Shown: positions 1 through 61,971 of the stretch, piece after piece | Layout: every line of letters begins with the position of its first letter | Numbering within the stretch: the stretch's first letter is position 1 | Assembly: GCA_963798845.1 (NCBI GenBank) | Contig: CAWCUS010000001.1 | Location: forward strand, 736,001 to 800,000 | Direction of reading: 5' to 3' | Origin: an uncultured Gemmatimonadales bacterium | Lineage (GTDB): Bacteria > Gemmatimonadota > Gemmatimonadetes > Longimicrobiales > RSA9 | DNA length: 64,000 bases | The notes under the pieces: model-generated | Seen by the model: the letters and a program-made list of their open reading frames with translations, nothing else | Told to the model about the DNA's origin: nothing | Database searches by the model: none | Program-made: the position numbers and the translations under genes

Positions 1-862
1 CGTCCGGGGTGGACTGGAGCGGGCGACGACGCTGTCGCACGCCCATTGGAGGGAGGTGGAGCGCGCGCTCGGCGCGGACACCGGTGACGCCATCGTCGTG
101 GTCTGGGCGCCGGAGGCCGACGCGGACACCGCGGCGAGAGAGATCCTGATCCGCGCGCGCGAGGCGCTGGCGGGCGTCCCCGCCGAGACGCGCCAGGCCC
201 GCGCCGACGGCACCACCGGCTTCGAGCGGATCCTCCCCGGCCCCGACCGAATGTACCCTGACACGGACACGCCGCCGCTCCCGATCTCCGACGTGCTGGT
301 GGCTGAGGTCGTCGCCGAACTGCCCGAGACGCCGTGGGCACGCGCGGACCGCTACGTCGGCCTGGGGCTCGACCCCGGTGCGGCGCAGCGCCTCTCCGTG
401 GCACCCTGGGCCGACCTGTTCGACGACGTCCGGCCCGCAGCCGGCGACACGGCCCGGACCGTGGCCCGGGCGCTCCAGCACCGCCTCCCTTTCCACTCCC
501 GAAGACACGCCGCGCCGCCCCCGTCCGCCGACCGCCTCGCCACCGTGGTCCGAGCGCTCGAGTCCGGGGTGCTGCTCCCCGGCGCCATTGAGCCGGCGCT
601 GGACGCGCTCGTGCTGGAGCCGGAGACGAGGGCCGGAGCGGTCGTCGCCCGCTTCCGCGCGTCGCCCGATGCGAGGAAGGCCGTGGCGTCGCGGATCGAG
701 GAAGCGGCCGCTCGGGCGCGCAACGAGGGCCCGCCCGATCCCGAGGCGGCGCTGCGCCGCGCCATGGGCGAGGTCATGCGCGGAGTCCGGGGGCGGGTGG
801 ACGCCGCGGACGTGCGCCGACGCGTCGTCGCCGCGCTCGGATTCGAAGTGGAGGCGGCGTGA
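1..862 (+). CDS. gatE: Glu-tRNA(Gln) amidotransferase subunit E (archaeal type), 5'-truncated by window edge
   Basis: Frame open from the window start. GVPAETRQARADGTTGFERILPGPDRMYPDTDTPP matches the GatE GVP-ETR...PG..RMYP-TD-PP signature. C-terminal YqeY-like tail AMGEVMRGVRGRVD. Stop overlaps gatD start. Confidence 0.88.
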   Translation, partial: VRGGLERATTLSHAHWREVERALGADTGDAIVVVWAPEADADTAAREILIRAREALAGVPAETRQARADGTTGFERILPGPDRMYPDTDTPPLPISDVLVAEVVAELPETPWARADRYVGLGLDPGAAQRLSVAPWADLFDDVRPAAGDTARTVARALQHRLPFHSRRHAAPPPSADRLATVVRALESGVLLPGAIEPALDALVLEPETRAGAVVARFRASPDARKAVASRIEEAAARARNEGPPDPEAALRRAMGEVMRGVRGRVDAADVRRRVVAALGFEVEAA

Positions 863-2250
863 TGAGCGCGACGGAGACCGGCGGCTATCGCGGACCGGCC
901 TGGGCGGCCATGCAGCGCTTCGGCATCACCGTGTGGTGCGAAGTGCGGGCGCGCACCACGCGCGGCGAGTTCATCGGACTGGTGCTGCCGCGCTCCGAGA
1001 CCAGCGACGACCTCCACCTCGTCCTGAAGCTCGGCTCCGGCTACAACGTCGGCCTCCGCCACGACACGATCCTCGAGCTGGAGAAGCTCGGGTATCGCGA
1101 GGCCCACTACAGGATCCCCGAGAAAGCCTTCCCCGTCACGCCCGACCTCCCGCGCGTCAAGCTGCTCGGCACGGGCGGCACCATCGCATCCCGGCTCGAC
1201 TACCGCACGGGCGCCGTCATACCCGCGTTCACCCCCGGCGAGCTGTACGGCTCGGTCCCGGAGCTGGCCGACGTGTGCAATCTGGAGACGGAGAAGCTGT
1301 TCGGCGTCTTCAGCGAGAACATGGGGCCCGAGCAGTACATGGTGCTGGCCGAGAAGATCGGCGAGGCCATCCGCGACGGCTACGACGGCGTGATCGTGGG
1401 TCATGGCACGGATACCATGCACCACACGGCCGCGGTCCTCAGCTTCATGGTCCAGGACCCGCCCGTCCCGGTGATCCTCGTGGGCAGCCAGCGCTCCTCC
1501 GACCGCCCGTCCTCCGACGCGGCCCGCAACCTCATCAACGCCGCATGGGCCGCCGGCCACGGGCCCATCGCCGAGGTCATGGTGTGCATGTTCGGCCCCA
1601 CCTCCGACGTGTACAACCTGCTCCACCGCGGCACGCGCGTGCGGAAGATGCACAGCTCCGTGCGAAGCACGTTCCGCACCCTGGGCGACATCCCGCTCGC
1701 CATGGTGGAGCGCGGCGCGCTCACCCCGCTCAAGGACGACTGGAAGCCCCGCCGCGACGATCGCGACGTCACCATCCGGCCCGCGTTCGACCCCCGGGTC
1801 ACCCTCGTCTACTACTATCCGGGGATGCAGCCGGACGTGATCGACGCGCTGGTGGGGTGCGGCTACCGCGGCATCGTGCTGGCCGGCACCGGCCTCGGCC
1901 ACGTCAACCGTCTCATCTATCCGGCGCTGGAGCGGGCGAGGGACGCGGGCGTGCAGGTCTACATGACGCTCCAGACGTTCTGGGGCTTCGTTCAGATGCA
2001 CGTCTACGAGACCGGCCGCGAGATCCTGGAGCTGGGCGTGGTGCCGCTCGCCAACATGCTGCCCGAAGTGGCCTACGTGAAGCTCGGCTGGGCGCTGGGC
2101 CTCCATCCCGATGACCCCGCCGCCGCGCGGGCCCTCATGACCGCCACGCTCGCCGGCGAGATGACCGAGCGCGAGCCGCACGACGGCTACCTCATCCTCC
2201 AGGGTGGCGTCCCGGAGGTTCAGGCGGCGCTCTCCGGCTTGTGGAGATGA
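859..2250 (+). CDS. gatD: Glu-tRNA(Gln) amidotransferase subunit D (GatD N-terminal domain + asparaginase-type glutaminase)
   Basis: GatD N-domain motif LVLKLGSGYNVG, then TGGTIASRLDYRTGAV, HGTDTM, GSQRSSDRPSSDA and RKMHSS; the catalytic Thr/Thr/Asp/Lys equivalents are present. Start may be ATG 862. Confidence 0.93.
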   Translation: MMSATETGGYRGPAWAAMQRFGITVWCEVRARTTRGEFIGLVLPRSETSDDLHLVLKLGSGYNVGLRHDTILELEKLGYREAHYRIPEKAFPVTPDLPRVKLLGTGGTIASRLDYRTGAVIPAFTPGELYGSVPELADVCNLETEKLFGVFSENMGPEQYMVLAEKIGEAIRDGYDGVIVGHGTDTMHHTAAVLSFMVQDPPVPVILVGSQRSSDRPSSDAARNLINAAWAAGHGPIAEVMVCMFGPTSDVYNLLHRGTRVRKMHSSVRSTFRTLGDIPLAMVERGALTPLKDDWKPRRDDRDVTIRPAFDPRVTLVYYYPGMQPDVIDALVGCGYRGIVLAGTGLGHVNRLIYPALERARDAGVQVYMTLQTFWGFVQMHVYETGREILELGVVPLANMLPEVAYVKLGWALGLHPDDPAAARALMTATLAGEMTEREPHDGYLILQGGVPEVQAALSGLWR

Positions 2251-2392
2251 GCGGAAGGGCGCGAAGAACCTGATGAGGGTGTCGGAATGGCGGTTCACTC
2301 GCTCCCTCCGGGGGCGCCACCGAGGTGGTCCGGCGCACCGTTCCCGGCTAAGTTCCTGGCCGTTCAAGGCCCCGGCAACGAAGAACGGACCG

Positions 2393-4969
2393 ATGACGAA
2401 TACATGGCACCCGCGGGCCGGCCGCGCTGGCCTGGCCTCGCTTCTCGTTCTGGCCGCGTGCGCGGCGCCCGTCACCCCGTCCCCGGAGCCGGCGACGCCC
2501 GGCGCGGCAGGGGCGGATGAGGCGGCATGGGACACCGTGTCCCGGACGCTCCCCACCGGTGTGACGCTGGATCCGGCGGGTGACGCGGTCCCCGTGGGCA
2601 GCTTTCCGCTGGCCTTCACGCTCGCGCCAGACCCACGGTACGCGGTGACGATCCTGAGCGGGTGGCGTGAGCAGGGCCTGGAGGTGGTGGACCGGGAGGC
2701 CGGGCGCGTGGTGCAGAGAGTGGCGCAGCCCGCGGCCTTCCTGGGCCTCGCCTTCTCTCCCGACGGCCGCACGCTGTTCGCGTCGGGCGGAAACCAGGAC
2801 GTGATCTACCGCTACGACTGGGGCGCCGACCTGCTGACCTTCCGCGACAGCATCGTCCTCGCCGCGCCGAACCGGTCCGTCGGCCACCTCCCCGGCGAGC
2901 CCATGACGCCGGGCCGGCCGCAGCAGGTCGGGCTTCACTTCCCCGCCGGCATCGCCCTCTCCCCCGACGGGGATCGGCTCTATGTCGCGGAGAACCTGGG
3001 GGACCTGCTCGCGGTGGTGGACGTGGGTAGCGGCCGCGTGGTCCAGCGCTTCCCGGCCGGGCGCTACCCGTACGGCGTGGTGGTCGCGCCGGACGGGACG
3101 GTGTACGTCTCGGCGTGGTCGCAGTCCACGGTGGCTGTGTTCGTGCCGACGGAGGACGGGCTCGAGCCCGATGGCGCCATCATCGTGGGACGCCACCCGT
3201 CGGCCATGGTGCTGAGCGAGGATGGGAGCCGCCTCTTCGTGGCGTCGGCCAGCACCGACCGCGTGGCCGTGGTGGACACGCGCGAGCGCCGGCTGATCAC
3301 GGAGCTGCTCGACCCGGCGCCGCACGGGCCCGGCGAGGGGAGCACGCCGAACGCGCTGGCCCTGTCGAAGGACGGTCGGCGGCTCTTCGTCGCCGAAGCG
3401 GACAACAACGCCGTGGCCGTCTTCGACCTCTCCTCCCGCACCGCCGGGCTGCGCTCAGGGCTGGGGCGCGACCTTCTTGCGGGGCGGATCCCTGCCGACT
3501 GGTACCCAACGGACGTCGAGATCCGCGGCGACACCCTCCTCACGCTGTCGGCCAAGGGGCTCGGCACGCGGCCCAACCCCGAGCTGCCGCAGCCCGGGCA
3601 GGCGCGCCGGCTCAGGCAGGTGGAGGAGAACTACACGCTGGGGCAGCTGGACGGCACGCTCCGCACTGTCCCGGGCGGCGCTGCGCTGCGCGGCGGCGAC
3701 CTGCGCCGCATGACCGCTCGCGTCGTGGCGGCGAACCACTGGGACCTCCCGCGCCGGGGCGCCTCCGCGGCCTACCCGCCGTTCGAGCACGTGATCTACG
3801 TGATCAAGGAGAACCGGACGTACGACCAGGTGTTCGGTGACATGCCGGAGGGCGACGGCGACTCTTCGCTGGTCTTCTTCCCGCGCGAGGTCTCGCCGAA
3901 TCACCACGCCCTGGCCGACCGCTTCGGTCTGTTCGACCGCTTCTTCGTGAACGCGGAGGTGAGCGCGGACGGGCACAACTGGTCCACCGCCGCCTACGCG
4001 AGCGACTACGTGGAGAAGACGGTCCCGTCCAACTACGCCGGGCTCCGCCCCTCGTACGACTACGAGGGCACGAACCGCGGCTTCGCCAACATCCCGCCGG
4101 AAGGCGAGGACGTCGCCGAGCCATCGCAGGGCTACATCTGGGACCTGGCCAACCGCGCGGGCATCACCTTCCGCAACTACGGCGAGTTCGTCATCCCGGA
4201 GGACGTGGATCTGGACGACCCAATGCCGGAGGGGTACCGCGGCGTGAAGCCGTTCCTCGCCGTGCACACCAACCCGGACTACGCCGGCTTCGACATGAAC
4301 ATCCCGGACCAGGACCGCGCCGACGTCTTCCTGCGCGACCTCCAGGAGTTCGAGCGCACGGGGGAGATGCCGCAGCTCATGATCCTGCGGCTCCCCAACG
4401 ACCACACGGCGGGTGGCCGGGCGGGCGCGCCCACGCCGGAGGCGTACATGGCGGACAACGACCTGGCTCTCGGCCGCATCGTCGAGGCCGTGTCCCGCTC
4501 TCGGTTCTGGAAGAGCACCGTCTTCTTCATCCTGGAGGACGACGCCCAGAACGGCCCGGACCACGTGGACTCCCACCGCTCGCCGCTGCTGGTGGTGTCC
4601 GCGTACGGGCGCCCGGGCGTGAGCCACCGGTTCGCCAACACGACGGACGTCATCGCCACCATGTCGGACATCCTGGGCATGGGGAGTCTCTCCCAGTTCG
4701 ACCACTACGGCCGCCCGTTGCGCGGCATCTTCGCGGACCGACCGGACCTGGAGCCGTACACCGCGCTGGTCCCCGCCGTCGACCTGGACGAGCGCAACGC
4801 CATCGACAACCCGGGCGCCGACGCCTCCCGCCACATCGACCTCCGATTCGAGGACAGCGTCGACGACATCCTCTTCAACCGGATCCTGTGGGCCATGATC
4901 AAGGGGCCGGACGTGCCCTACCCCGGGACCACGCGCATGCCCGTCCTCGAATGGCAGAGGTCGCGCTGA
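2393..4969 (+). CDS. Lipoprotein: YVTN/YncE beta-propeller fused to a phosphoesterase (alkaline-phosphatase superfamily) domain
   Basis: Lipobox LAAC; repeated ALSPDG.RLYVA propeller blades; YVIKENRTYDQVFGD, SADGHNW, LPNDHT and EDDAQNGPDHVDSHRS motifs. Start set at ATG 2393. Confidence 0.85.
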   Translation: MTNTWHPRAGRAGLASLLVLAACAAPVTPSPEPATPGAAGADEAAWDTVSRTLPTGVTLDPAGDAVPVGSFPLAFTLAPDPRYAVTILSGWREQGLEVVDREAGRVVQRVAQPAAFLGLAFSPDGRTLFASGGNQDVIYRYDWGADLLTFRDSIVLAAPNRSVGHLPGEPMTPGRPQQVGLHFPAGIALSPDGDRLYVAENLGDLLAVVDVGSGRVVQRFPAGRYPYGVVVAPDGTVYVSAWSQSTVAVFVPTEDGLEPDGAIIVGRHPSAMVLSEDGSRLFVASASTDRVAVVDTRERRLITELLDPAPHGPGEGSTPNALALSKDGRRLFVAEADNNAVAVFDLSSRTAGLRSGLGRDLLAGRIPADWYPTDVEIRGDTLLTLSAKGLGTRPNPELPQPGQARRLRQVEENYTLGQLDGTLRTVPGGAALRGGDLRRMTARVVAANHWDLPRRGASAAYPPFEHVIYVIKENRTYDQVFGDMPEGDGDSSLVFFPREVSPNHHALADRFGLFDRFFVNAEVSADGHNWSTAAYASDYVEKTVPSNYAGLRPSYDYEGTNRGFANIPPEGEDVAEPSQGYIWDLANRAGITFRNYGEFVIPEDVDLDDPMPEGYRGVKPFLAVHTNPDYAGFDMNIPDQDRADVFLRDLQEFERTGEMPQLMILRLPNDHTAGGRAGAPTPEAYMADNDLALGRIVEAVSRSRFWKSTVFFILEDDAQNGPDHVDSHRSPLLVVSAYGRPGVSHRFANTTDVIATMSDILGMGSLSQFDHYGRPLRGIFADRPDLEPYTALVPAVDLDERNAIDNPGADASRHIDLRFEDSVDDILFNRILWAMIKGPDVPYPGTTRMPVLEWQRSR

Positions 4970-5071: not shown

Positions 5072-6736
5072 TCAATCCCCCAGCATCTCCATCTCCACGG
5101 CCGCGCGAGGAGTCCGGAGCAGCAACACGAGCGGCAGAGAGATCACGAACAGGACCGTGACCAGCGCGAACACGTGGTTGTACGCCAGCACCGCCGCCTG
5201 GCGCAGGAACGAGAGGTTCAGCAGCTGGAGCGCCCTCGCCCTGGCCGTGGCCAGGTCCATCCCCCGCGCCTGCATCCCGGCCGTGGCCCGCGCCAGGAAG
5301 TTGACGGTGGCCGGGTCGAACGCGGTGGCGTGCTGGCCGAGGATGGCGTGGTTGCGCGACATGGAGCGAGTCAGCGACGTGGCCGCCGCCGCGATCCCGA
5401 CGCTCCCGGCCACCTGCCGCACCACGTTGTAGAGCCCGGTCGCCTGCGTCATCTTCGGGCGCGGTATGGTGGCGAGCGCCGCCGTCGACAGGGCGACGAA
5501 GATCAGCGCGAAGCCCACGCCCTGCCACAGCTGGGGCCAGAAGATGTCCCAGAAGCCCACGTCGATGGTCAGGTGAGACAGCTCCCAGAAGGAGTAGGCG
5601 CTCACGGCCAGCCCCGCGCCGACCAGCACTTTCGGCCCCAGCCGGTTGTAGACGCGGCCGCCCAGCGGCATGATCACGGCCATGGCCAGGCTGCGCGGGA
5701 TCAGCGCCTCGCCCGAGAGCATGGCCGTGTAGCCCAGCAGGTTCTGGAGGAAGAGCGGGAGCAGGAAGAGCGACCCGTACAGCCCCATCCCCAGCACCCC
5801 GCCGATCACCGTTGCGGAAGTGAACGAGCCGTTCTTCAGGATGCGCAGGTTCACCGCGGGGCGGTCCGTGTTGAGCTCGTGCCAGATGAACAGCAGCATG
5901 CCCACGATGCCCATGAGGGCCAGGCTGATGATGAAGCTGGACTCGAACCAGTCGTTCCGCTGCCCCTCCTCCAGCATGAGCTGTAGCGCGCCCAGCCCCA
6001 TGGCCAGCAGCGCCAGCCCCGTCCAGTCGATCCGCCCCTTCTCCCGTACCAGGTAGTGCGGGTCGCGGATGAAGCGCGTGACCAGCATCACGTTCAGGAT
6101 GCCGATCGGGACGTTGATGTAGAAAACCCACGGCCACGTGTAGTTGTCCGTGAGCCACCCGCCCAGCGTGGGGCCGATGGCCGGCGCCACCACGACGCCC
6201 ATCCCGTAGATCCCCATCGCCATCGCCTGCTCCTCCGCCGGGAACGTCTCCCGGAGGATCGCCTGCGATACGGTCACGATCACCCCGCCCCCGATCCCCT
6301 GGAGCACGCGGAAGATCACCATCACCGGCAGCGTGCGCGACACGCCGCACGCCATGGAAGCCAGCGTGAAGAGCGCAACGCTGAAGATGTAGAAGTTCTT
6401 GCGGCCGAACCGGCTGCTGAGCATGCCGGTGATCGGCATGATGATCACCTGCGCCAGGATATAGCCGGTCACCACCCAGGTGATCTGCTCCACGGTCGTG
6501 CCCAGCGTGCCGGTCATGGATGGGAGCGCCACGTTCACGATGCTGGAGTCCAGCACGGCCATGATCGTCCCCGTCAGCACCGTCCCGGCCACCAGCCACT
6601 TGTGGTGCTCCATCTCCTCCACGGCCGCGTCCGGTACCGCGTGCGACGCTGCCGTTGCGGGCCCGGCCGGATCGGGCGACAACGGCGCGCCAGGCTCGCC
6701 GGACCCCCCACCCATCCCGTTCACTCCTTCCGCCAT
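5072..6736 (-). CDS. emrB: DHA2-family (EmrB/QacA) MFS efflux permease
   Basis: MAVLDSSIVNVALP, APAIGPTLGGWLTD.Y.WPWVFYINVPIG and MLEEGQRNDWFES; lies after emrA-like and tolC-like genes. Confidence 0.92.
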   Translation of the reverse strand: MAEGVNGMGGGSGEPGAPLSPDPAGPATAASHAVPDAAVEEMEHHKWLVAGTVLTGTIMAVLDSSIVNVALPSMTGTLGTTVEQITWVVTGYILAQVIIMPITGMLSSRFGRKNFYIFSVALFTLASMACGVSRTLPVMVIFRVLQGIGGGVIVTVSQAILRETFPAEEQAMAMGIYGMGVVVAPAIGPTLGGWLTDNYTWPWVFYINVPIGILNVMLVTRFIRDPHYLVREKGRIDWTGLALLAMGLGALQLMLEEGQRNDWFESSFIISLALMGIVGMLLFIWHELNTDRPAVNLRILKNGSFTSATVIGGVLGMGLYGSLFLLPLFLQNLLGYTAMLSGEALIPRSLAMAVIMPLGGRVYNRLGPKVLVGAGLAVSAYSFWELSHLTIDVGFWDIFWPQLWQGVGFALIFVALSTAALATIPRPKMTQATGLYNVVRQVAGSVGIAAAATSLTRSMSRNHAILGQHATAFDPATVNFLARATAGMQARGMDLATARARALQLLNLSFLRQAAVLAYNHVFALVTVLFVISLPLVLLLRTPRAAVEMEMLGD

Positions 6737-6737
6737 G

Positions 6738-7865
6738 TCAGCCCGTGCTCACGTGCACGACCACGCTCATCCCGGGGCGCAGCGGACGGTCCGACCCGCA
6801 CCCCTCGCTCACCCGGATTCGAACGGGGACGCGCTGCACCACCTTCGTGAAGTTCCCCGTGGCGTTGTCCGGCGGGATCAGCGAGAACTGCGACCCCGTC
6901 GCCCCGCTGATGCTCGCCACCTCACCGCGCGCCCTGCACCCGCCGTACGCGTCCACCTTCAGCTCCGCGGCCTCGCCTGGCCGGATGTCGCCCAGCTGCG
7001 TCTCCTTGAAGTTGGCGGTCACCGTGATCCCGGAGTCGGCAACCACGGTCATCACCGGCTGCCCGGGCTGGAGCAGCTGCCCCGGCTCCGCCGACCGCTT
7101 CGCCACCACCCCGGTCACCGGGGCCCCGATGCGCGCGTGCGAAAGCTGTAGCCTGGCGTTCTCCACGGCCGCCTGCGCCGCCTTCAGCCGCGCTTCGGCC
7201 TGGCGCACGCCCGCCTGCGCCGTCTGCACGCCCGCCCGCGCGGCCAGCCGCTGCTGCTCCAGCGACCGCAGCGTGGCCCTCGCCGATTCCGCCGCCGCTT
7301 CCGCCCCGTCCAGCTGCTGCTGCGACACGATCTGCTTCTCCGCCAGTCCCCGGATCCGCTCCAGGTCCCGGTCCGCCTTCGACGCCGACGCCTTCGCGGC
7401 CGCGATCTGTGCGCCCAGCGCTTCGCCCTGCCGCTGCGCCTGCTCCACCTGGGACTCGGCCTGCCCCGGCACGCCGTCACCCCCCGCCGCCGCCCGCGCC
7501 GCCGCCAGCTCCGCCTCCACCTGGTCCAGACGCTGGCGCAGCTCCACGTCGTCCACCAGCACCAGCGTCTGCCCCTCCGACACGTGCTGGTTCTCCTCCA
7601 CTCCCACGCTCTTCACGTACCCGCCCACCTTCGCCAGCACGGGCACCAGGTGGCCGGCCACGTACGCGTCGTCCGTCGACTCGTGCGACGACGCGTACCG
7701 CCACCGCATCACGCCCCAGATCGCCACCGCCACCAGCAGCACCCCGGCCACCGGCACCACCCACCTGCGCTGCCCGTTCCGGGGCGGCCCACCCGCGGGC
7801 GCATCCTTCCTGCCCTCCGCCATTGCCTCGCTCCTGTCCCCATCGTCCTTCGGTCCGTTCGCCAT
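6738..7865 (-). CDS. emrA: HlyD/EmrA-family periplasmic adaptor
   Basis: ESTDDAYV, coiled coil, ANFKETQL and ATGSQFSLIPPDNATGNFTKVVQRVPVRI; start overlaps the TolC stop. Confidence 0.92.
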   Translation of the reverse strand: MANGPKDDGDRSEAMAEGRKDAPAGGPPRNGQRRWVVPVAGVLLVAVAIWGVMRWRYASSHESTDDAYVAGHLVPVLAKVGGYVKSVGVEENQHVSEGQTLVLVDDVELRQRLDQVEAELAAARAAAGGDGVPGQAESQVEQAQRQGEALGAQIAAAKASASKADRDLERIRGLAEKQIVSQQQLDGAEAAAESARATLRSLEQQRLAARAGVQTAQAGVRQAEARLKAAQAAVENARLQLSHARIGAPVTGVVAKRSAEPGQLLQPGQPVMTVVADSGITVTANFKETQLGDIRPGEAAELKVDAYGGCRARGEVASISGATGSQFSLIPPDNATGNFTKVVQRVPVRIRVSEGCGSDRPLRPGMSVVVHVSTG

Positions 7866-9238
7866 CAGCGCAGCTCCCCCGCCTTGCCCTCCGCGGCCCA
7901 CAGCGCCACGCGCGCGCCGCGGGAGGCCGCGACCGCGTCCACGTACGCACTGCGGGCGTCGCTCAGCCGCAGCGCCGACTCCGTCACCTCCGCGCTGCCG
8001 GCCACGCCCGCCTCGAAGCGCTCCTGCGCCTGACCGTACTCCTCCTGCGCCAGCTCCAGCCTCGACCTCGCCGCCGACACCTGCTCTTCGGAGTCCGACA
8101 GATCGAGCAGCGCGGCACGGACCTGGAGCGCCACCTGCTCCCGCAGCTCGTGCCGCTCCGCTTCCAGCAGCGAGACCTGCGCGTGCTCCTCATCCAGACG
8201 CGCGCTGGTCCGGAAGCCCGAGAACGCCGGCACCGACACCCGCACCGACCAGTCGTACGTGTTCAGCAGGTGCTGCTCCTCCCTCCCGATCCAGCCGTCA
8301 TCGGCGCCCAGGGACACCCGCGGCAGACGCTCCGCCCGCACTGCCGAGACCGCGTGCGATGCCGCCTGGATCCGCTGGTCCAGCGCCACCACGTCGCTGC
8401 GGCGCGCCAGCGCCGCGGCCACTGCGGCATCCACGTCCTCTCCCACCCCCGACGCCCCCGACACCACCGTGTCCACCAGCACCACCGGCCGGTCCAGCGG
8501 CAGGTCCAGTGACCGCAGCAACGCCAGCCTGGCCTGCGATGCCTGGTTCCTCGCCCCGATCAGCTTCGCCTGCATGGTCGCCAGCTGCGCTTCCGCACGC
8601 GTCACGTCCAGCTTCACGCCCACGCCCGCGTCGAGCAGGTTCTTCGCCGTCCGCACCAGGTCCCGCGCCAGCGACATGTCCTCCCGCACCGCCGCCATCC
8701 TCGACTCCGCCTGCAGGCCCCGCACGTACGCCCTCGCCGCGCCCGCGGCCAGCGACTCCCGCGTCGCCGCCGTGCTGCTGCGCGACGCGGCGAGCGCCGA
8801 CTTCGCCGAGCGCACGCGCTCCACCGCGCTCCAGTCGAACAGCGTCTGCGTCAGTGTCGCCCGCACGTCGGGCGTGCCGATCGGCCCGATCACCTGCCCG
8901 TTCGGGTCGAACAGGGGCGGCTCACCGGGTGGGGACGGGAAGTCGATCCCGAACGTCGCCGTGTTGAAGCTCCGCTGCCCGTCCTGCGCCGTGAGGCCGA
9001 CCTGCGGGAGCAGCGCCGAGCGCGCCTGAGTCACCCTCGCCGCCGCCTGCACATCCCCCAGCTGCGCCATGTCCAGCCGGGCCCCGCGCTCCGTGGCCAT
9101 CCTCACCGCGTCCCCCAGCCGCAGCCGCAGCGTGTCCGGCGCGCCCCCGCTCTCCTGCGCGCACACCGGCGCCGCACCGGCCGCGGCCAGGGCCAGCACC
9201 GCTGCGCCCGATCTCAGAACGCCCGTCCTCCTCCTCAC
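7865..9238 (-). CDS. TolC-family outer-membrane efflux protein
   Basis: Signal peptide after a GTG overlapping the TetR stop; ARSALLPQV and RAERLPRVSL outer-membrane-efflux repeats; helical repeat pattern. Confidence 0.88.
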   Translation of the reverse strand: MRRRTGVLRSGAAVLALAAAGAAPVCAQESGGAPDTLRLRLGDAVRMATERGARLDMAQLGDVQAAARVTQARSALLPQVGLTAQDGQRSFNTATFGIDFPSPPGEPPLFDPNGQVIGPIGTPDVRATLTQTLFDWSAVERVRSAKSALAASRSSTAATRESLAAGAARAYVRGLQAESRMAAVREDMSLARDLVRTAKNLLDAGVGVKLDVTRAEAQLATMQAKLIGARNQASQARLALLRSLDLPLDRPVVLVDTVVSGASGVGEDVDAAVAAALARRSDVVALDQRIQAASHAVSAVRAERLPRVSLGADDGWIGREEQHLLNTYDWSVRVSVPAFSGFRTSARLDEEHAQVSLLEAERHELREQVALQVRAALLDLSDSEEQVSAARSRLELAQEEYGQAQERFEAGVAGSAEVTESALRLSDARSAYVDAVAASRGARVALWAAEGKAGELR

Positions 9239-9870
9239 GCCTCGCCTCCGCGTATCGCCGCCATGTAGAAGTCCAGCAGCTGCTGCAGCACCGTCTCGTC
9301 GTCCAGCCCGCCCAGCGATTCCATGAACTCCGGGCGCGCGCACCACACGGCGTGCTTGATCAGCAGCGCCAGCAGCATGCGCGCCCGCGCCGCGGCGTCG
9401 CCCGGCGAAAACTCGCCCCGCTCCACTCCCCAATCGAGCAGCGACTCCACGCCCTCCATGACCGGGCGGCGGACCTCCCGCACATACTCGCGCACCAGCT
9501 CCGGGAACGCGTTCGCCTCCGCCTGGACCAGCCGGTGCACCGGGTCGAACTCCGGCGACCGGACCTGCGCCCAGATCACCGAGATCAGGTCCTCCAGTGA
9601 CACCGTGGCGCTCTCCCCGCGCTCCACCCCGGCCACAGCCTCCCGAATCCCCCGCACCCGCCGGTGCATTACTTCCGTGAACAGCTCCGTCTTGCCCGGG
9701 AAGTACAGGTAGATCGTCGCCTTCGAGACCCCGGCCCGCGCCGCGATGTCCTCCACCCGCGCCGCCTCCAGGCCCCGTTCGCTGAACTCCGCCAGCGCCG
9801 CGTCCAGGATCTGTCCCGGCCGCTGTTCCGGCTGCCGCCGCCAGCGCGGCTCGGTTGCCCGTTCCGTCAT
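9235..9870 (-). CDS. TetR/AcrR-family transcriptional regulator
   Basis: ILDAALAEFSERG...VEDIAARAGVSKATIYLYFPGKTELF helix-turn-helix; first gene of the efflux operon. Confidence 0.93.
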   Translation of the reverse strand: MTERATEPRWRRQPEQRPGQILDAALAEFSERGLEAARVEDIAARAGVSKATIYLYFPGKTELFTEVMHRRVRGIREAVAGVERGESATVSLEDLISVIWAQVRSPEFDPVHRLVQAEANAFPELVREYVREVRRPVMEGVESLLDWGVERGEFSPGDAAARARMLLALLIKHAVWCARPEFMESLGGLDDETVLQQLLDFYMAAIRGGEA

Positions 9871-9887
9871 GCGTGCCCTCCCGCGGA

Positions 9888-9909
9888 ACTAACTGACCGG
9901 TCATTTAGT
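9888..9909. promoter_or_regulatory. Candidate TetR operator (22-bp imperfect palindrome)
   Basis: ACTAACTGACC|GGTCATTTAGT: 11-bp arms with one mismatch, AT-rich, 18 bp upstream of the tetR start. Confidence 0.65.
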
Positions 9910-10104
9910 AGACGCGCAAGCTAATGCCCCCGGGACCTGACGTGAAGCCCCGGCGCCGCAACGGACTGCGGAGCGCCGGCGGGCCCGGGGCGCATGGATG
10001 CGACGGCCGATCCGCGTCGCGCGCGTGGCCGTCGCTCCCCATATTGACGCGCGGCGGTTTCCTCCGGCGAGGCGCGGCCGATGGTCTCTGGGGAGGGCGG
10101 TGGG

Positions 10105-10806
10105 ATGACCGAAGCGTCGGGTTTCCGCATCGTTCCCGCGTTCCGCCGGTGGGCGCGGGAGTTCGTCATCATCGTGCTGGGCGTGCTGGTGGCGCTCTGG
10201 GTGGACGGCTGGTACCAGCGCCGCGCGGATCACGAGCGGGAGCGGGTGGACCTCGAGCAGCTCCTGGCTACCACGCGCGAGAACGAAGTCCGTGTCATGG
10301 TCGCCCTGCGCGACGACAGCAGCGCGCTCGCGTCGGCGACTCGACTGCTGACGCTCGTTCACTCGTCGCGCCCGCTCCCCCCCGAGGACACGCTCGGCCG
10401 TCTGCGCAACGACGCCTTCCACTTCTCCGTGTTCTTCCCCATGACGGGGACGTACGCGGCCATCGCGCAGACGGGCGACCTGGGGCTGATCCGGAACGAC
10501 TCTCTGCGGGCGGCGGTGGCGGCTTATTCCGGCGTGCTGGAAGGCACGGCGCAGCAGATCGAGGACTGGACGGACACCTTTCACCGCAACGTCGAGGAGC
10601 TGATCCGGACAGTCCCCATCGGCGGAATCTACGGCGCGGCGTTCGGCGAGGCGGCCGGCGCCGGTGTCTGGCGCTCCGCCGCGCTGCAGCGCGCGCTCCT
10701 GCTCCAGCAGATCATCTCCGCGAATCGCGTCCAGGACCTCCGCCTGCTCCTGGAGCAGACGCGTTCGCTGCGCGCGTCCCTGGAGGCCGAGCAGGCCGGG
10801 TTCTAG
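10105..10806 (+). CDS. Hypothetical protein with one N-terminal TM helix (DUF6090-like start)
   Basis: EFVIIVLGVLVALWVDGW...RE pattern followed by a helical soluble domain; coding-like codon bias. Confidence 0.65.
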   Translation: MTEASGFRIVPAFRRWAREFVIIVLGVLVALWVDGWYQRRADHERERVDLEQLLATTRENEVRVMVALRDDSSALASATRLLTLVHSSRPLPPEDTLGRLRNDAFHFSVFFPMTGTYAAIAQTGDLGLIRNDSLRAAVAAYSGVLEGTAQQIEDWTDTFHRNVEELIRTVPIGGIYGAAFGEAAGAGVWRSAALQRALLLQQIISANRVQDLRLLLEQTRSLRASLEAEQAGF

Positions 10807-11212: not shown

Positions 11213-11635
11213 TCAGTCGAAGATGTCGGCGAAGATGAGGATCGCTCCGGTGACCACCGTCCCGATCGCGGACTCGATCCAGTAGCCGGTGCTGAACGGC
11301 GGGGTCGCGACGAGGATCGCCGCCGGCTCCCCGGCCCGCACCACCACCCGCTCGGTGTGGTCGATCGCCTGCTTCCGCCGCCCTTCTGAAGCCGTGACCG
11401 TCACCTGGCGCTCGCCCGCCGGGATGCCGCTGATCTCGACCCGCTCGGTGAACCTGTCCTCGACGACGAGCGACCCGTCCACTCGGACGCTCACGGACCG
11501 GATCGGCTCCGTGAACCGGACGATGACCGTTCCCGTCGAACCCGGGCTCGGCGTCTCCGGATACCGGGCCTGCACGTTCGACGCGCACGCCGAGAGGACC
11601 ACCGCCAGCACCAACGACACGATTGGCTTCTTCAC
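11213..11635 (-). CDS. Hypothetical lipoprotein with a C-terminal TM helix
   Basis: AGGAGG ribosome-binding site, GTG start, lipobox LSAC; beta-rich PEGA-like middle; hydrophobic C-terminus. Confidence 0.7.
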   Translation of the reverse strand: MKKPIVSLVLAVVLSACASNVQARYPETPSPGSTGTVIVRFTEPIRSVSVRVDGSLVVEDRFTERVEISGIPAGERQVTVTASEGRRKQAIDHTERVVVRAGEPAAILVATPPFSTGYWIESAIGTVVTGAILIFADIFD

Positions 11636-11777
11636 CGCGCTCTCCCTCCTGGTGAGCGTGTGGATCTCGAACATCGAAGCTGTCGGGTGGGGCGACCCCG
11701 AATATGCCGGCCGCCGTGGGGGTTCACAAGCGATCGCTGGGCGCAGGCATGAGACTGACGGGGCGGTGCAGCGCCCG

Positions 11778-12431
11778 TCACCCGTCGTCGCGCAGCGTGT
11801 CCATCGGGTCGACGCGCGCGGCTCCCCAGGCGGGGAGCAGCGCGGCGGCCATGGCTGCGGCGGCGAGGACGAGGGCGGCGGCGGCGAGGGTGCCGGGGTC
11901 GCCGGGCGTGACGCCGTAGAGGAACCCGGCGAGCAGTCGCGTGGTCGCCAGGGCGAGGGCGACGCCGAGCCCCAGGCCCAGGGCGACGAGGACTCCGGCC
12001 TCTCCGGCCACCATCGCCAGCACCCTCCGCCGTGCCGCGCCGAGCGCCATGCGGATGCCGATCTCGCCGCGGCGGCGGGTTACGGCGTAGGCGAGGGTCC
12101 CGTAGAGCCCGATCACGGCGAGCAGCAGAGCGAGGGCGCCGAAGAAGGCGGACAGCGTCGCCAGGAGCCGCGGCCGGGCCAGCGACGCCGAGAGCTGGTC
12201 CGCCAGCGTGGTGATGTCCACCGTGAGAGCGGGGCTCACTCCGGCGACGGCGTCCTTCACCTCCGGGATGAGCGCCCCGGGATCGCCGAAGCCTCGGACC
12301 TCGAGGATCAGGTCGGGCGGCGCGTCGTCGCTCTGAGCGAAGGGGATGAACGCGGTGGGAGGCGGCTCCTCCGTCAGGGAATTGTACTTCACGTCGCCCA
12401 CCACGCCCACGACTTCGATGGGGTCTCTCAC
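11778..12431 (-). pseudogene. C-terminal fragment of an ADOP/MacB-FtsX-type ABC permease
   Basis: Begins mid-domain at EVVGVVGDVKY; FGALALLLAVIGLYG...RRRGEIGIRMALGA...ARVDPMDTLR. About a quarter the length of the intact paralogue at 25233, with no homologous N-terminus upstream. Confidence 0.7.
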
Positions 12432-12533
12432 GGTCAGGTGAGCTACTGGGAAACGGCGGCGCTGGAGGAGGAAAGCCGGGTGCCGGCGCTGCTGAAGCGG
12501 CTGCGCTCGACGTGGGTGGAAGTGCTGCCGTCG

Positions 12534-12698
12534 TCAGCGGAGGGAGAGCTGGAGGCCGACGGCCACGGCGTGGCGTCCGGTGCCGCCGAGGACGAAGAGG
12601 TGCCAGACCGCGTGGTCGTAGCGCCGCGGCGAAGGGTACAACCGCGTCCCCGCCGTGTGGGCCTCGCCGCCGGGCAGCAGGCAGGAGATCGCCGCGAC
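12534..12698 (-). pseudogene. Degenerate C-terminal fragment of a hemolysin III/PAQR-family membrane protein
   Basis: LLPGGEAHTAGTRLYPSPRRYDHAVWHLFVLGGTGRHAVAV resembles the family C-terminus (GG..YT.G..FY......HA.WH.FVL.G...H); upstream part absent. Confidence 0.6.
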
Positions 12699-12724
12699 CA
12701 CTGGCGTCGGTGTTTCGGCCCAGT

Positions 12725-12880
12725 GGTCGGTTTTCGGGCGTGGAGGCCGCTTATCAAACACTCGATCGACCGCCGCCAGAGCGAAGGGTCGGTTTCCGGC
12801 GCTGAGACGCGGAAACCGACCACCGGGCGAGCTGGCACCGCCGACTGGTCGCTTCCGGCCCCCTCCGGGCTCCACGCCTG
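12725..12880. repeat. REP-like palindromic cluster A (GGTCG...CGACC units at about 60-62 bp spacing)
   Basis: GGTCG starts at 12725, 12787 and 12847; unit 12787-12821 has perfect 12-bp arms GGTCGGTTTCCG / CGGAAACCGACC. Confidence 0.6.
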
Positions 12881-12949
12881 ACCCCGCGTCCGGTCTTCCT
12901 CACCTCTCGATCACGCTGCGGGCACCGGCCCCCCGGCTCCCCATCGCGG

Positions 12950-18474: not shown

Positions 18475-18888
18475 ATGCGCAACCGAGCGGCCGTCGCGGC
18501 GCTGGGGATGGCCGCGGTCCTGACGATCCTCGCCTGCGGCTCGGACAGCACCGGGCCGGACAACGGCGCGCCCAACGTCCCGGTGATCGGCAACGGGCCG
18601 AACGCGTTCGGGTTCGCCGTTCTCGCGGACGGGCTGACGCTCGACCGGACGTACCAACTTTCCTTCACGAGCGACTCCAGCAGCATCGGCCTGGCGGTGT
18701 CCGGCTACGGCGGCGGGGCGGGCACGTTCGAGCTGTTCGACGAGGCTCACGCGCTCCTTTTCGCCCGTCCCCTCAACGGCAACATCGCCGAGGGCCAGGC
18801 CGACGTTCGCGTCGGCCGACCGGCGGAGGTGCGGCTCCGTTTCACCGGCTACACGGGCAGCGTCGCCATAGGTGTCAACGGCGATTGA
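18475..18888 (+). CDS. Hypothetical lipoprotein
   Basis: GGAGG ribosome-binding site, lipobox ILAC, beta-rich mature domain. Confidence 0.75.
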   Translation: MRNRAAVAALGMAAVLTILACGSDSTGPDNGAPNVPVIGNGPNAFGFAVLADGLTLDRTYQLSFTSDSSSIGLAVSGYGGGAGTFELFDEAHALLFARPLNGNIAEGQADVRVGRPAEVRLRFTGYTGSVAIGVNGD

Positions 18889-37442: not shown

Positions 37443-38621
37443 TCACCCGGGCGCGGGGAGGCGGAGCGCGAACGTGGCGCCGGGACGGTCGGTCGGCTCC
37501 ACCTCCAGCTCGCCGTCCATGAGGCCGGCGACGGCGCGGGCGAGGGAGAGGCCGAGGCCGAAGCCGGACCCGGTCTCGGTCAGGCGGCGGTAGGGCTGGA
37601 AGATGTCGTCGGAGTGCGCGGGGTCGATCCCGGGTCCCTGGTCGTGCACGCGGATGGTCACGCGTGCAGGCGGGCGCGGCTCCCGGGCCGCGTCGACGCG
37701 GATGGTGGTGTGGGCCGGGGAGAACTTGATGGCGTTGTCGAGCAGCTGCACGAGCACCTGCCGGAGGCGGTGCTCGTCGGCGATGACGTCCAGGTCGTCG
37801 GCGACCTGCACCTCCAGGTCGACCTCCGCCTGCTTCGCGGGGAACGCCACCACCTCCAGGCTCGCCTGTGCAACCGGGCGGAGCGGGAGGGGGTGGCATT
37901 CGACCGTGAGCCGCCCCGCCGTGGCCAGCCCCAGCTCGAGGGCGTTGCCCACCAGCGTGTCCACGTGGCCGATCAGCGTCTCGAGACGGCTCACGGCCGT
38001 TTCCTGGCCGTCCGTGAGCGGGCCGTACACGCCGGTGCGGAGCAGGTGGAGGTAGCCGCGCATGGAGCCGAGGGGCGAGCGCAGGTCGTGGCCGACCATG
38101 CGCAGCGCCTCCTCGCGCCGCGATCCCTGCGTCTCCAGCTCGTTCAACCGCCGCTGCATCCCGGCCGCCGTGGTCTCCCGGCGCTCCCCCTCCAGGGCGA
38201 CGGAGGCCTGGTCGGCGAGAGCGGAGAGCAGCCACTCGTCCCGCTCCGCCGCAGGCCGGTCCTCCGGCAGGAGCACCGCCAGCAGTCCCGTCACGGCACC
38301 GCGCACCACGAGTGGCACGCCCAGGAATTGCTCCCTCGCTCCCGGCCCGAACACCGAGCTGAGGCGCGAGATCAGCGTCTCGTCGAGCGGCTCGCGGAAC
38401 CGCTCCATGATGGCTTCATCCACGCCCCTCGCGGCCCGGATGTGGAGCAGACCCTCCTCGTCCGGGAGCATCAGCACGGAGCGCGGCGCGTCGAGAAGCG
38501 CCTGGGCGGTCTCGACGGTGATGTCCAGCACCTCGTCCACCGACGCGGCATAGGTGAGGGCGCGGCTCGCGGCCGTGAGGCGGTGCAGCGCCCCTGCGGC
38601 GCCCTGCGAGCTATCACTCAC
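37443..38621 (-). CDS. Cytoplasmic GAF-domain sensor histidine kinase
   Basis: GAF domain (FLGVPLVVRGAVTGLL), H-box GHDLRSPL, N-box LLDNAIKF, DQGPGI, GFGLGL; no TM segment. Confidence 0.92.
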   Translation of the reverse strand: MSDSSQGAAGALHRLTAASRALTYAASVDEVLDITVETAQALLDAPRSVLMLPDEEGLLHIRAARGVDEAIMERFREPLDETLISRLSSVFGPGAREQFLGVPLVVRGAVTGLLAVLLPEDRPAAERDEWLLSALADQASVALEGERRETTAAGMQRRLNELETQGSRREEALRMVGHDLRSPLGSMRGYLHLLRTGVYGPLTDGQETAVSRLETLIGHVDTLVGNALELGLATAGRLTVECHPLPLRPVAQASLEVVAFPAKQAEVDLEVQVADDLDVIADEHRLRQVLVQLLDNAIKFSPAHTTIRVDAAREPRPPARVTIRVHDQGPGIDPAHSDDIFQPYRRLTETGSGFGLGLSLARAVAGLMDGELEVEPTDRPGATFALRLPAPG

Positions 38622-40041
38622 GACCGCTGGCTCCGGCTTCCACTCTGATCCCGCCCGCCCCGATGGTGAACGGGAACCCGCCCAGCGGGTGGTCGATCCC
38701 CCGCGCTTTCACGACGCGGAGCATCCGCCGGGGCGGGTCGGTCTCGAGGTCGGTGTGCAGCGAGATCAGCACGTCCGAGAGGGTGCTCAGGCGTGACTCC
38801 TGGGCCCCCTGCTGCGGATAGGTGGGGGGCCGCCTGGCCTCGAGGGTCATCACGGTGGTGATCCCGCTCGCCCCGAGGTGCTGGACGATCGAGTACAGGT
38901 AGTCGTGGAACCGCTCGTCGCTGGCCGCCGCCAGCCGGAGATCGCCGAGCGCATCGAGAACAATGCGGCGGATCCCCTGCTCGCGGATCGCCGCGAACAT
39001 GCTCACCACCACGGAGTCGATCTGGAGCTCCACGGGCGACGCGTACTGGAGATGCAGCCCGCGTCTGCGGTATTCCGCCAGGTCGACGCCCAGTGCGGAG
39101 ATCGTGCGCGCCAGCTGTGTGGGGTTCTCCTGGAAGTTGAGGACGAGCGCCGGTTCCCCCTGCCGCACGCCGTCGAGGGCGAAGCTCAGCGCGAACGTGG
39201 TCTTCCCGGCCCCCGCCTCGCCGACCACGATCGCGGTGCTCCCACGCCAGAACCCGCCACCCAGCAGCCTGTCGACTCCGGCGATGCCGGAAGAGACGCG
39301 TTCCTGCGCCATGTCATAGGCCAGGGGCCTGTCCGGCGTCACCAGACGGGGGAACACGTGGAGGCCATCCGCCGAGATCGTGAAAGCGTGCAGACCCTCC
39401 CGATAGCTGCTCCCGCGCAACTTCAGGACGCGCAGGTAGCGCTCGTCCCTCTTTCCCGACCCGTGCCGCGCCAGCTGGATGATCCCGTCCGCCACCGCGA
39501 ACTCCGGGTACTCGGGCACTTCCTCTTCCGAGTACTCCCCGACCAGGAACGTGGTGATGTCGTAGCCCGCCAGCAGGCCGCCCAGTTGCGCCGTGAGGCG
39601 GCGCACGTCCAGGGGCGACTCCGCGAGATCGTGCAGCGCCTTGAAGGAGTCCACCACGAGCAGCTTCGGGCGCAGCTCCCGGATGAGCTCGCCCACGTGC
39701 CGAACCAGGTAGTCGATCCCCTCCGCCAGCAGCTCCTGGCTCACGTCCTGGTAAACGACCGAGCCCAGCATCTTCGACTCGTCGTAGAACCGGAACGTCT
39801 GGAGGTAGGTCAGCACCTTCGCCTGCGGCTCCGCCAGCGTGGAGATGTACACCACCGGGCGATCCCCGCCCGCGTTCGTGAACAGGATCTGCTGGGCCAG
39901 GATCGTCTTGCCCGTGCCCGGCTGACCCATGATGATGTTGATGGAGTTCGACGGGAACCCGCCATTCACCACTGCGTCCGCTTCGGTGTGACCCGTCGAG
40001 ATCCGATCCAGCTCCAGCACGCCGTCCACAACCTCAGCCAT
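38614..40041 (-). CDS. KaiC-like double-domain RecA-superfamily ATPase
   Basis: Two Walker A motifs (GQPGTGKT, GEAGAGKT), Walker B VVDS and VLDA, LRVLKLRG, VFPRL linker, C-terminal LSTLSD. Confidence 0.9.
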   Translation of the reverse strand: MAEVVDGVLELDRISTGHTEADAVVNGGFPSNSINIIMGQPGTGKTILAQQILFTNAGGDRPVVYISTLAEPQAKVLTYLQTFRFYDESKMLGSVVYQDVSQELLAEGIDYLVRHVGELIRELRPKLLVVDSFKALHDLAESPLDVRRLTAQLGGLLAGYDITTFLVGEYSEEEVPEYPEFAVADGIIQLARHGSGKRDERYLRVLKLRGSSYREGLHAFTISADGLHVFPRLVTPDRPLAYDMAQERVSSGIAGVDRLLGGGFWRGSTAIVVGEAGAGKTTFALSFALDGVRQGEPALVLNFQENPTQLARTISALGVDLAEYRRRGLHLQYASPVELQIDSVVVSMFAAIREQGIRRIVLDALGDLRLAAASDERFHDYLYSIVQHLGASGITTVMTLEARRPPTYPQQGAQESRLSTLSDVLISLHTDLETDPPRRMLRVVKARGIDHPLGGFPFTIGAGGIRVEAGASGRE

Positions 40042-53043: not shown

Positions 53044-53068
53044 GATCCGGCTGCGGCATCCCGCCGCA

Positions 53069-54980: not shown

Positions 54981-54999
54981 CACCTTGCGCGGTTCGAGT

Positions 55000-58047: not shown

Positions 58048-58126
58048 TGCGTCCATCTCCTGCTCTGGATGGTGTGAAATGGCCCCACCCCGCCCGATCA
58101 CCCCTGCCGCTGCGGGCGCCAACCCG

Positions 58127-59128: not shown

Positions 59129-59152
59129 GGCAACGGCGGGGCTCGAGGTTCA

Positions 59153-59201
59153 TGTAAACGTTTTCAGAAAACGGTTACAGCACGGCCGCTCACCCTGTCA
59201 A
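59153..59201 (-). promoter_or_regulatory. Tandem LacI-type operators with an upstream TTGACA -35 box
   Basis: TGTAAACGTTTTCA (59153-59166) and AGAAAACGGTTACA (59166-59179); TTGACA on the minus strand at 59196-59201; -10 box unclear. Confidence 0.7.
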
Positions 59202-59343
59202 GAGCCACGTTCCCGGGCCCCTCCGACGCGGCCCCGCCGCTCCGCCACCGCCTCTCGACCGCCGACCGGGACGTGCAGCCCGCCACCCGCCGCCGGCCGG
59301 CCACCGTGGCGGCGGCCACGCCACGGCCCTACCCTGCATTCTC

Positions 59344-61170: not shown

Positions 61171-61234
61171 CGGGCCGCAGCGGCCCTCTCGGGGGCGAGC
61201 GTCGCGGTGCCCGCGCGCGTCGCGGTGCCCGCGC

Positions 61235-61954: not shown

Positions 61955-61971
61955 AGGCGCCGGCGTATCCT

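Follow-up and report, generated by a model that had tools for sequence, protein, structure and literature searches.

The first genes of a 64-kb stretch of DNA from an uncultured Gemmatimonadales bacterium (the whole stretch is called the window below) are the 3′ part of gatE and a complete gatD. Judged by sequence, the two genes make up an operon with translational coupling and encode the heterodimeric, tRNA-dependent amidotransferase GatDE. GatDE is the textbook archaeal Gln-tRNA(Gln) transamidase. As judged from its distribution and phylogeny, the operon is old and common to a large bacterial clade, not a transfer into the window genome alone.

The window starts inside gatE, and about two thirds of this gene (its 5′ part) lie upstream of the window. 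The features of the pair are as follows.

2..862, plus strand: 3′ part of gatE, 286 C-terminal codons and the stop codon TGA at 860-862.
248..268, plus strand: RMYPDTD motif of GatE (in translation), aligned with 'rmypetd' of 1zq1_C and 'rmyletd' of 2d6f_C.
850..854, plus strand: GGAGG, Shine-Dalgarno-like and of putative role, within the end of gatE and 7 nucleotides (nt) before the gatD ATG.
862..2250, plus strand: complete gatD, 462 amino acids (aa) from ATG at 862 to TGA at 2250, with an in-frame GTG at 859 as an alternative start.
964..1089, plus strand: GatD-specific N-terminal domain (PF18195, GatD_N; E 2.3e-10, 40.1 bits, cutoff 25.7).
1171..1182, plus strand: TGGT of GatD, in which T107 aligns with the nucleophile T101 of 2d6f_A.
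1402..1416, plus strand: HGTDT of GatD, in which T183 and D184 align with T177 and D178 of 2d6f_A.
1642..1653, plus strand: RKMH of GatD, in which K262 aligns with K254 of 2d6f_A.
2251..2392, no strand: spacer of 142 nt after gatD, at the end of the operon; the next gene starts with ATG at 2393.

The overlap and coupling of the two genes, proposed in an initial annotation made from the letters of the window, hold up, as both genes lie on the plus strand, share a base and have GGAGG 7 nt upstream of the second start. Frame +2 is uninterrupted from base 2 to the stop codon of gatE, whose final A is also the first base of the gatD ATG (862-864), giving an overlap of 1 nt, or 4 nt if counted from the GTG at 859. 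The database copy of the window GatD also has 462 aa. A promoter and terminator scan of positions 1-3000 found no terminator-like or sigma-70-like promoter site.

Hidden Markov model scores agree with the initial assignment of the proteins as GatE and GatD, not GatB and an ordinary asparaginase; the families concerned are TIGR00134/PRK04028 for GatE and TIGR02153/PRK04183 for GatD. The gatE fragment matches the NCBIfam GatE model NF003107 (E 4.2e-39, 134.5 bits, model positions 359-621 of 630) and reaches just 36.7 bits with the best GatB model; the equivalog cutoff for GatE is 456 bits, and the 134.5 bits come from the C-terminal 286 residues only. The fragment aligns with the solved GatE structures 1zq1_C (residues 368-619 of 633, E 9.4e-25) and 2d6f_C (residues 352-609 of 619, E 1.1e-19), and the GatB structure 3kfu_F is a marginal match (E 5.9e-4). 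The helical, YqeY-like tail of GatE, which had also been proposed, is recognised through the GatE alignments alone, with a weak match over the last 150 residues; this part of the proposal is supported by the GatE structures but not by Pfam, as a scan of the fragment gave 0 families, tail model included. The GatD models TIGR02153 (gatD_arch; 478.5 bits, cutoff 324) and NF003217 (470 bits, cutoff 310) both score above the type I asparaginase subfamily model asnASE_I on GatD (357.9 bits), Pfam identifies Asparaginase (PF00710) and Asparaginase_C (PF17763) after GatD_N, and the solved GatD subunits are matched at E 4e-111 (1zq1_A) and E 2.4e-110 (2d6f_A).

All of the motifs named at the outset (the GatD N-domain, TGGT, HGTDT, RKMH and RMYP-TD) lie at the expected positions. 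We take T101, T177, D178 and K254 of 2d6f_A to be the catalytic residues. Their counterparts T107, T183, D184 and K262 are invariant in 84/84 bacterial and 22/22 archaeal-labelled GatD sequences (106/106). PMC2330236 describes GatD as having a Thr nucleophile and a Thr-Lys-Asp triad.

The window pair exhibits considerable similarities to archaeal GatDE from Methanothermobacter thermautotrophicus (2D6F) and Pyrococcus abyssi (1ZQ1), namely the same two subunits in the same domain order, a GatD with N-domain, type I asparaginase fold and Thr/Thr-Asp-Lys residues, and genes that are adjacent and overlapping. A complete GatE from a relative, locus L028, also has the cradle, insertion, helical and tail regions of the archaeal subunit, aligning with residues 2-615 of the 619 residues of 2d6f_C. 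Bacterial GatCAB belongs to the same reaction class, and GatB is a paralogue of GatE that shares its catalytic cradle (PF02934, spanning residues 48-501 of the L028 GatE for a model of 277 positions); GatE in addition carries an inserted AspRS-like domain, which is missing from GatB. However, the glutaminase of GatCAB is the amidase GatA, whereas that of the window is the asparaginase-like GatD; the window fragment is GatE-like and not GatB-like by score, and there is no GatC among the window genes. Type I L-asparaginase, represented by Escherichia coli AnsA, has the catalytic domain fold and motifs in common with GatD, but unlike AnsA the window protein has GatD_N, scores higher with the GatD models and is coupled to gatE.

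How often GatDE appears in bacterial genomes was left open by the initial annotation, and the answer is often. A scan of one genome per species (GTDB r232) gave at least 600 stretches that matched the pattern, and 591 of the 600 listed are confirmed GatD stretches. The locus analyses described here cover the best 80 of these loci, which are 64-84% identical to the window GatD. No archaeal title occurs among them (0/80); 74 resolve to Bacteria, and the titles of the other 6, reading 'bacterium' or a Candidatus name, do not resolve. The record labels of the best 80 loci are as follows.

Gemmatimonadota 16; Bacteroidota 6; Bacillota 6; Ignavibacteriota 6; Planctomycetota 5; Krumholzibacteriota 4.
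Myxococcota 3; Fibrobacterota 3; Eisenbacteria, Acidobacteriota, Pseudomonadota and Calditrichota 2 each.
Singles or unranked labels, including Latescibacteria, Fermentibacteria, Cloacimonadota, Elusimicrobiota, Aminicenantes, Kapabacteria, Zhuqueibacterota and Aegiribacteria.

For bins that were named automatically, several of the labels are probably unreliable, and such bins group with Aminicenantes- or Zhuqueibacterota-labelled rows in the trees. By record titles, the clade comprises Gemmatimonadota, Krumholzibacteriota, Eisenbacteria, Fibrobacterota, Calditrichota, Ignavibacteriota/Kapabacteria, Latescibacteria, Fermentibacteria, Cloacimonadota, Zixibacteria, Aminicenantes and others. A protein homology search with the window GatD points the same way, with at least 8000 candidates at E ≤ 0.001 and at least 120 clusters (90% identity level) that are 80-100% identical to the window protein. 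The organism-named close matches among those listed are all from Gemmatimonadota (4/4; three Gemmatimonadetes/Gemmatimonadota and one Longimicrobiales). A search started from the representative P0123 yielded 11 rows with an organism name, each of them bacterial (Zixibacteria, GN15, 'FCB group' bacterium, Ignavibacteria, Celaenobacter, Bipolaricaulota and 'bacterium'). Public annotation already calls these bacterial proteins GatD. Complete chromosomes (CP070722.1, OY970178.1 and OZ245006.1) are represented among the relatives.

The operon, too, is common among the loci. A tblastn search with the full L028 GatE places gatE directly upstream of gatD in 72/80 loci, and clustering of open reading frames (ORFs) adds 3 truncated gatE copies, for 75/80. 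Three loci (L026, L029 and L053) have no DNA upstream of gatD in the record, and two have upstream DNA with other genes and no gatE, although their GatD is intact (494 and 527 bits); these two copies of gatD lie at the following positions.

L035 6515-7915: gatD without adjacent gatE.
L041 3008-4324: gatD without adjacent gatE.

The gatE of these two genomes may be located elsewhere in them; the genes found upstream of gatD there encode a YbgF/CpoB-like protein and a peptide-binding ABC protein. The full-length GatE of L028 scores 458.4 bits (cutoff 456) and 404.8 bits (cutoff 319.55) with the GatE models. Because the catalytic residues are invariant, the full-length GatE architecture is kept and the pair is coupled in nearly all loci, the comparison argues for an active amidotransferase under strong constraint. 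The GatE part that binds tRNA appears to diverge much faster than the GatD glutaminase, the tail of the window GatE being 50-54% identical to the same region of relatives and GatD being 80-84% identical.

For the phylogeny, a search of a representative library with GatD gave 9276 matches at E ≤ 0.001, 449 of them at E ≤ 1e-30; among the representatives listed, a handful only are more than 50% identical and the remainder are 34-46% identical. A FastTree phylogeny of 197 rows, comprising the window, 77 of the 80 loci (3 partial ones were dropped) and 119 of the 150 listed representatives (31 lay outside 400-520 aa), places all bacterial rows together with P0121, P0123 and P0172 in one clade with a support of 100. 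The next relatives of this clade are P0124 and P0125/P0127. A profile of these three retrieved 22 organism-named rows, all archaeal: 20 Asgard (Sigyn-, Hod-, Prometh-, Hermod-, Odin- and Heimdallarchaeota and 'Asgard group'), one Bathyarchaeota and one Thermoplasmata. Mixture-model trees were rooted on E. coli AnsA (L081). With 97 rows, bacterial GatD is again one clade, at 100 in the Shimodaira-Hasegawa-like approximate likelihood ratio test, and in both this tree and the 197-row tree the window GatD is nested among Gemmatimonadota-labelled sequences with a support of 96. AnsA lies on a very long branch outside all GatD, and the window protein falls within the GatD clade rather than with ordinary asparaginases, a grouping that the initial annotation had considered.

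A more careful tree of 65 rows (20 bacterial, 22 archaeal-labelled, 22 representatives without taxon names and the AnsA outgroup) recovers the bacteria at 100/100, the Asgard-labelled clade at 99/93, the two together at 100/98, and these plus P0128, whose nearest Atlas clusters are archaeal, at 100/96. Unlike archaeal GatDE, the window pair has a bacterial host and belongs to a clade apart from all archaeal-labelled sequences, with its nearest archaeal relatives about 45% identical to the window GatD. The unrooted pairing of bacterial with Asgard GatD appears strong. The most economical account would be that an Asgard-related lineage and an ancestor of these bacteria exchanged the genes once, long ago, and that the bacteria have kept them since. 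The bacterial clade sits on a long stem, of 0.48 changes per column, and has short branches within it. We infer that the exchange ran from archaea to bacteria, because the bacterial range is limited, the internal branches of the bacterial clade are short and GatDE is universal in archaea. This direction is not proven, as the approximately unbiased (AU) test does not fix the root. Thus, the ameliorated archaea-to-bacteria transfer that had been proposed stands insofar as the bacteria are sister to Asgard archaea inside GatD diversity; it is not private to this genome, and its direction is unproven.

There are also points that weaken this account of origin. The titles of metagenome-bin records may be wrong. 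The remaining GatD diversity in the careful tree consists of 22 representatives without taxon names, of which the one checked (P0128) points to Archaea; the deeper nodes are weakly supported, and the ultrafast bootstrap correlation, at 0.971, had not settled. With the outgroup forced onto the bacterial stem, the AU test gives a log-likelihood difference of 6.35 and p 0.174, and this root is not rejected. Such a root would suit vertical inheritance, in which the last common ancestor already had GatDE, these bacteria retained it and other bacteria lost it; PMC9499178 cites a proposal by Sheppard and Soll that GatDE was present in LUCA, life's last universal common ancestor. However, the best tree pairs the bacteria with Asgard-labelled sequences inside other GatD diversity, and with the root on the bacterial stem, Asgard GatD would have to branch off first among the archaeal sequences. 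In addition, the bacterial internal branches are very short compared with archaeal ones, and the bacterial titles among the best 80 loci span a limited set of phyla. Vertical inheritance is therefore considered improbable.

A recent private transfer from an archaeon into the window genome, since ameliorated, is still less credible and would be a considerable surprise. GatDE is otherwise described as archaeal (PMC9499178, PMC8007984), which speaks for such a transfer, but the window GatD is nested in Gemmatimonadota-labelled rows within a clade of at least 80 species-level genomes, and its best archaeal relatives share just about 45% identity with it. For gatE (0.91) and gatD (0.95), the G+C content at third codon positions (GC3) is also the same as in the neighbours, the other 35 filtered ORFs covering 0.80-0.96. 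Codon style thus matches that of the bacterial neighbours, among which the TolC and SusC/SusD genes are plainly bacterial, as the initial annotation had it for TolC and SusC.

Finally, the pair could be an artefact, that is, an archaeal fragment mis-joined to a bacterial contig or a mis-binned contig, and this can be set aside almost entirely. The window has a G+C content of 72% that is uniform throughout, its GatD lies within a contig of 888,928 bp, and a 93%-identical relative lies within one of 892,488 bp. Furthermore, gatD stands between bacterial genes in 80 independent records, the neighbours in relatives being bacterial gltX and glnS and genes for RecO, RodZ, FtsX, sigma-54 activators and TonB receptors. 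The host is a high-GC diderm bacterium, in agreement with the initial annotation; its best matches and its place in the trees make it probably a member of Gemmatimonadota. It has bacterial neighbours with TolC-like and SusC/SusD-like genes; the gene pair is compositionally at home in it.

In several relatives, the pair is accompanied by genes for glutaminyl-tRNA synthetase (GlnRS; glnS) and glutamyl-tRNA synthetase (GluRS; gltX), at the following positions.

L009 7938-13163; L011 922-6037; L013 7944-13032: gatE-gatD-glnS operon, Gemmatimonadota-like.
L024 810-4495 (glnS cut by the contig end); L028 7911-13145: gatE-gatD-glnS operon, Gemmatimonadota-like.
L022 5572-11353: GlnRS-YqeY fusion with gatE-gatD.
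L009 3870-4382 and L013 6310-7635, both on the minus strand: GluRS beside gatE-gatD, with Arg within 'AIRGRCRT' and 'TRERARTT'.

In the five operons, glnS is immediately downstream of gatD; in L011, L013 and L028 the two genes overlap or are a few bases apart. The glnS genes score 660-708 bits with TIGR00440 (cutoff 425.8), those of L013 and L028 reaching 685-708. In L022, a GlnRS-YqeY fusion (NF011291, 1059 bits, cutoff 681) is located 33 nt upstream of gatE, and in L016 glnS is about 9 kb from the pair. Thus, glnS adjoins the pair in 6/80 loci and is held by at least 7/80, and at least the six hosts with GlnRS beside gatE-gatD do not lack the direct route. Divergently upstream of the pair in L009 and L013 is a bacterial-type gltX (443 and 438 bits, cutoff 290), with tRNA-Ser(GCU) between gltX and gatE; L011 and L024 have tRNA-Ser and a truncated gltX start. 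The 64-kb window itself contains no glnS and no gltX. These neighbours set the relatives apart from archaeal GatDE, as their GluRS is bacterial-type and their loci co-occur with GlnRS, which is absent from archaea (PMC9499178).

Regarding function, the repeated link to glnS and gltX, together with family membership, makes conversion of Glu-tRNA(Gln) to Gln-tRNA(Gln) the most likely reaction of bacterial GatDE, and we hold this with moderate confidence; here it is the substrate and the physiological role that we infer. By analogy with the family, GatD would hydrolyse glutamine or asparagine through its Thr nucleophile and Thr-Asp-Lys triad, and GatE would phosphorylate Glu on Glu-tRNA(Gln) and then amidate it to give Gln-tRNA(Gln). 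In the window host, the enzyme would have to accept bacterial tRNA(Gln). In relatives with an adjacent glnS, GatDE would provide a second or a corrective path beside direct charging by GlnRS.

A number of observations count against this assignment. The glnS genes in at least 7/80 GatDE loci make the indirect route dispensable in principle, and the absence of GlnRS, a trait of the archaeal indirect pathway, is not found in the relatives in which glnS adjoins the pair. The archaeal pathway further involves a non-discriminating GluRS and a tRNA(Gln) with A1-U72 and a fitting D-loop. The full-length GluRS proteins of L009 and L013 have Arg at the position aligned with R358 of Thermus thermophilus GluRS, which we take to be the mark of a discriminating GluRS that would not make Glu-tRNA(Gln). 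Scans for tRNA genes gave no tRNA(Gln) in either the window or the best 80 loci. The window GatE is incomplete, and its tail is less conserved than GatD, as described above. In addition, according to PMC2330236, archaeal GatDE reads the A1-U72 pair of tRNA(Gln), whereas bacterial tRNA(Gln) normally has U1-A72, which speaks against a simple copy of the archaeal pathway.

Because GlnRS can share an operon with gatE-gatD, both uses envisaged in the initial annotation, a maker of Gln-tRNA and a repurposed enzyme, are still live, the new fact being that GlnRS adjoins the pair in 6 loci. A repurposed GatDE would have given up Gln-tRNA(Gln) and would amidate another aminoacyl-tRNA, most plausibly Asp-tRNA(Asn), filling the role that GatCAB has in bacteria with GlnRS, or would only correct mischarged tRNA. 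Deinococcus, Thermus and Bdellovibrio keep GatCAB alongside GlnRS (PMC4206432). The relatives resemble these genera in having GlnRS and a tRNA-dependent amidotransferase together, and the fusion of L022 is a Deinococcus-type GlnRS-YqeY. They differ from them in that the amidotransferase is GatDE, in one operon with glnS. Furthermore, GatCAB serves asparagine formation in these genera, and for GatDE this is only a candidate role.

Repurposing is consistent with the glnS genes beside the pair and within 9 kb in a seventh locus, with the Arg of the adjacent GluRS in L009 and L013 (presumably a sign of discrimination), with the long stem and short internal branches of bacterial GatD, and with the fast divergence of the GatE tail. 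However, it is glnS and gltX, rather than aspS or asnS, to which the operon is repeatedly linked, and GatD and GatE (the latter as the full-length L028 protein) pass the equivalog models. The argument from GluRS would fall if another GluRS, of the non-discriminating kind, were encoded at a different place in the genome. Moreover, archaeal GatDE is specific for Glu-tRNA(Gln), as stated in PMC2330236. Repurposing is thus regarded as unlikely, although worth keeping in view, and synthesis of Gln-tRNA(Gln) is still the favoured reaction.

A reading that joins the phylogenetic and the functional evidence may be put forward tentatively, as a possibility with clearly less than an even chance. GatDE would then be no archaeal signature but an old monophyletic bacterial lineage with an Asgard sister, firmly established through a large part of the Fibrobacterota-Chlorobiota-Bacteroidota-like radiation. 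Among Gemmatimonadales, it would share one operon with GlnRS beside a discriminating-looking GluRS and would have a job other than the textbook one. If this reading is true, the candidate jobs are synthesis of Asn-tRNA(Asn), clearing of mischarged Glu-tRNA(Gln), or a module with a GlnRS-family enzyme, and GatDE would have relearned bacterial tRNA identity, with U1-A72 instead of A1-U72.

Beyond gatE-gatD, no conserved synteny was found across the best 80 loci. The next largest families around the pair are generic ABC ATPases (14 loci) and sigma-54 activators (13 loci); three further large ORF clusters near the pair proved to be antisense ORFs over gatE and gatD. A tblastn search for gatB-like genes in the window and the 80 loci found none outside gatE, which is expected by chance in stretches of this kind and is uninformative on whole genomes. 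A gene of the glutamine synthetase (GS) family adjoins gatE-gatD in 5/80 loci, as listed below.

L005 8564-9967; L012 11412-12854; L016 11206-12765: GS-family gene downstream of gatD, GS-like at 138-151 bits.
L056 1650-3149: GS-family gene upstream of gatE, the sole one above the GlnA cutoff (510 vs 429 bits).
L044 1-1392: GS-family gene upstream of gatE, assigned by sequence clustering only.

The representative P0122 (943 aa) matches positions 5-457 of 630 in the GatE model, has no helical or tail part, and runs on, in the one polypeptide, into the whole of GatD. Either the two are fused in nature or this is an artefact of gene calling or a frameshift.

The other genes of the window, among them peptidases downstream of gatD, include the following.

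From ATG 2393: lipoprotein-like beta-propeller/phosphoesterase, N-terminus MTNTW...LAAC, with SGL, Lactonase and Phosphoesterase domains.
5072-9904, minus strand: efflux cluster of an MFS transporter, a HlyD-like adaptor, a TolC-like outer-membrane protein and a TetR regulator.
7865-9904, minus strand: TolC-like outer-membrane efflux protein, ORF of 679 aa.
37443-38621, minus strand: GAF-HisKA-HATPase histidine kinase, overlapping the KaiC-like gene by 8 nt.
38614-40041, minus strand: KaiC-like double-domain ATPase.
44993-63999: sugar-utilisation cluster with a GH94-type protein of 1454 aa, a solute-binding protein, a glucoamylase-like protein, SusD/SusC-like proteins, a LacI regulator, a GH43 protein with a discoidin domain and a sulfatase.
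53109-54983, minus strand: SusD-like protein.
55000-58122, minus strand: SusC-like TonB receptor.

The TolC ORF overlaps the TetR ORF (9235-9870), and its true start is therefore probably further downstream. Three ORFs on the plus strand (10081-10806, 11289-12881 and 18475-18888) have coding-like codons and no Pfam family at E ≤ 1e-5.

Reviews published as late as 2021 and 2022 confine GatDE to archaea, and they build on this distribution in discussing co-evolution with archaeal tRNA(Gln) and the content of LUCA (PMC9499178, PMC8007984). A search of the literature by title and abstract gave no description of a bacterial GatDE clade; subscription journals and supplements lie outside its coverage, so one may exist. 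The novelty is the biology, which has been left unremarked, and not the annotation, as public pipelines already name the genes.

For the window alone, the outcome is the correct annotation of a gene pair that is already named publicly. For the family, hundreds of bacterial species-level genomes with an intact gatE-gatD contradict the premise that GatDE is confined to archaea. These bacteria offer a natural experiment, in which an enzyme tuned to A1-U72 would be at work in cells with bacterial tRNA(Gln) and GluRS, and the sister relation to Asgard archaea provides a dated-looking link between the domains. In addition, the operon with GlnRS raises a testable question, namely whether the presence of both enzymes reflects redundancy or a change of substrate.

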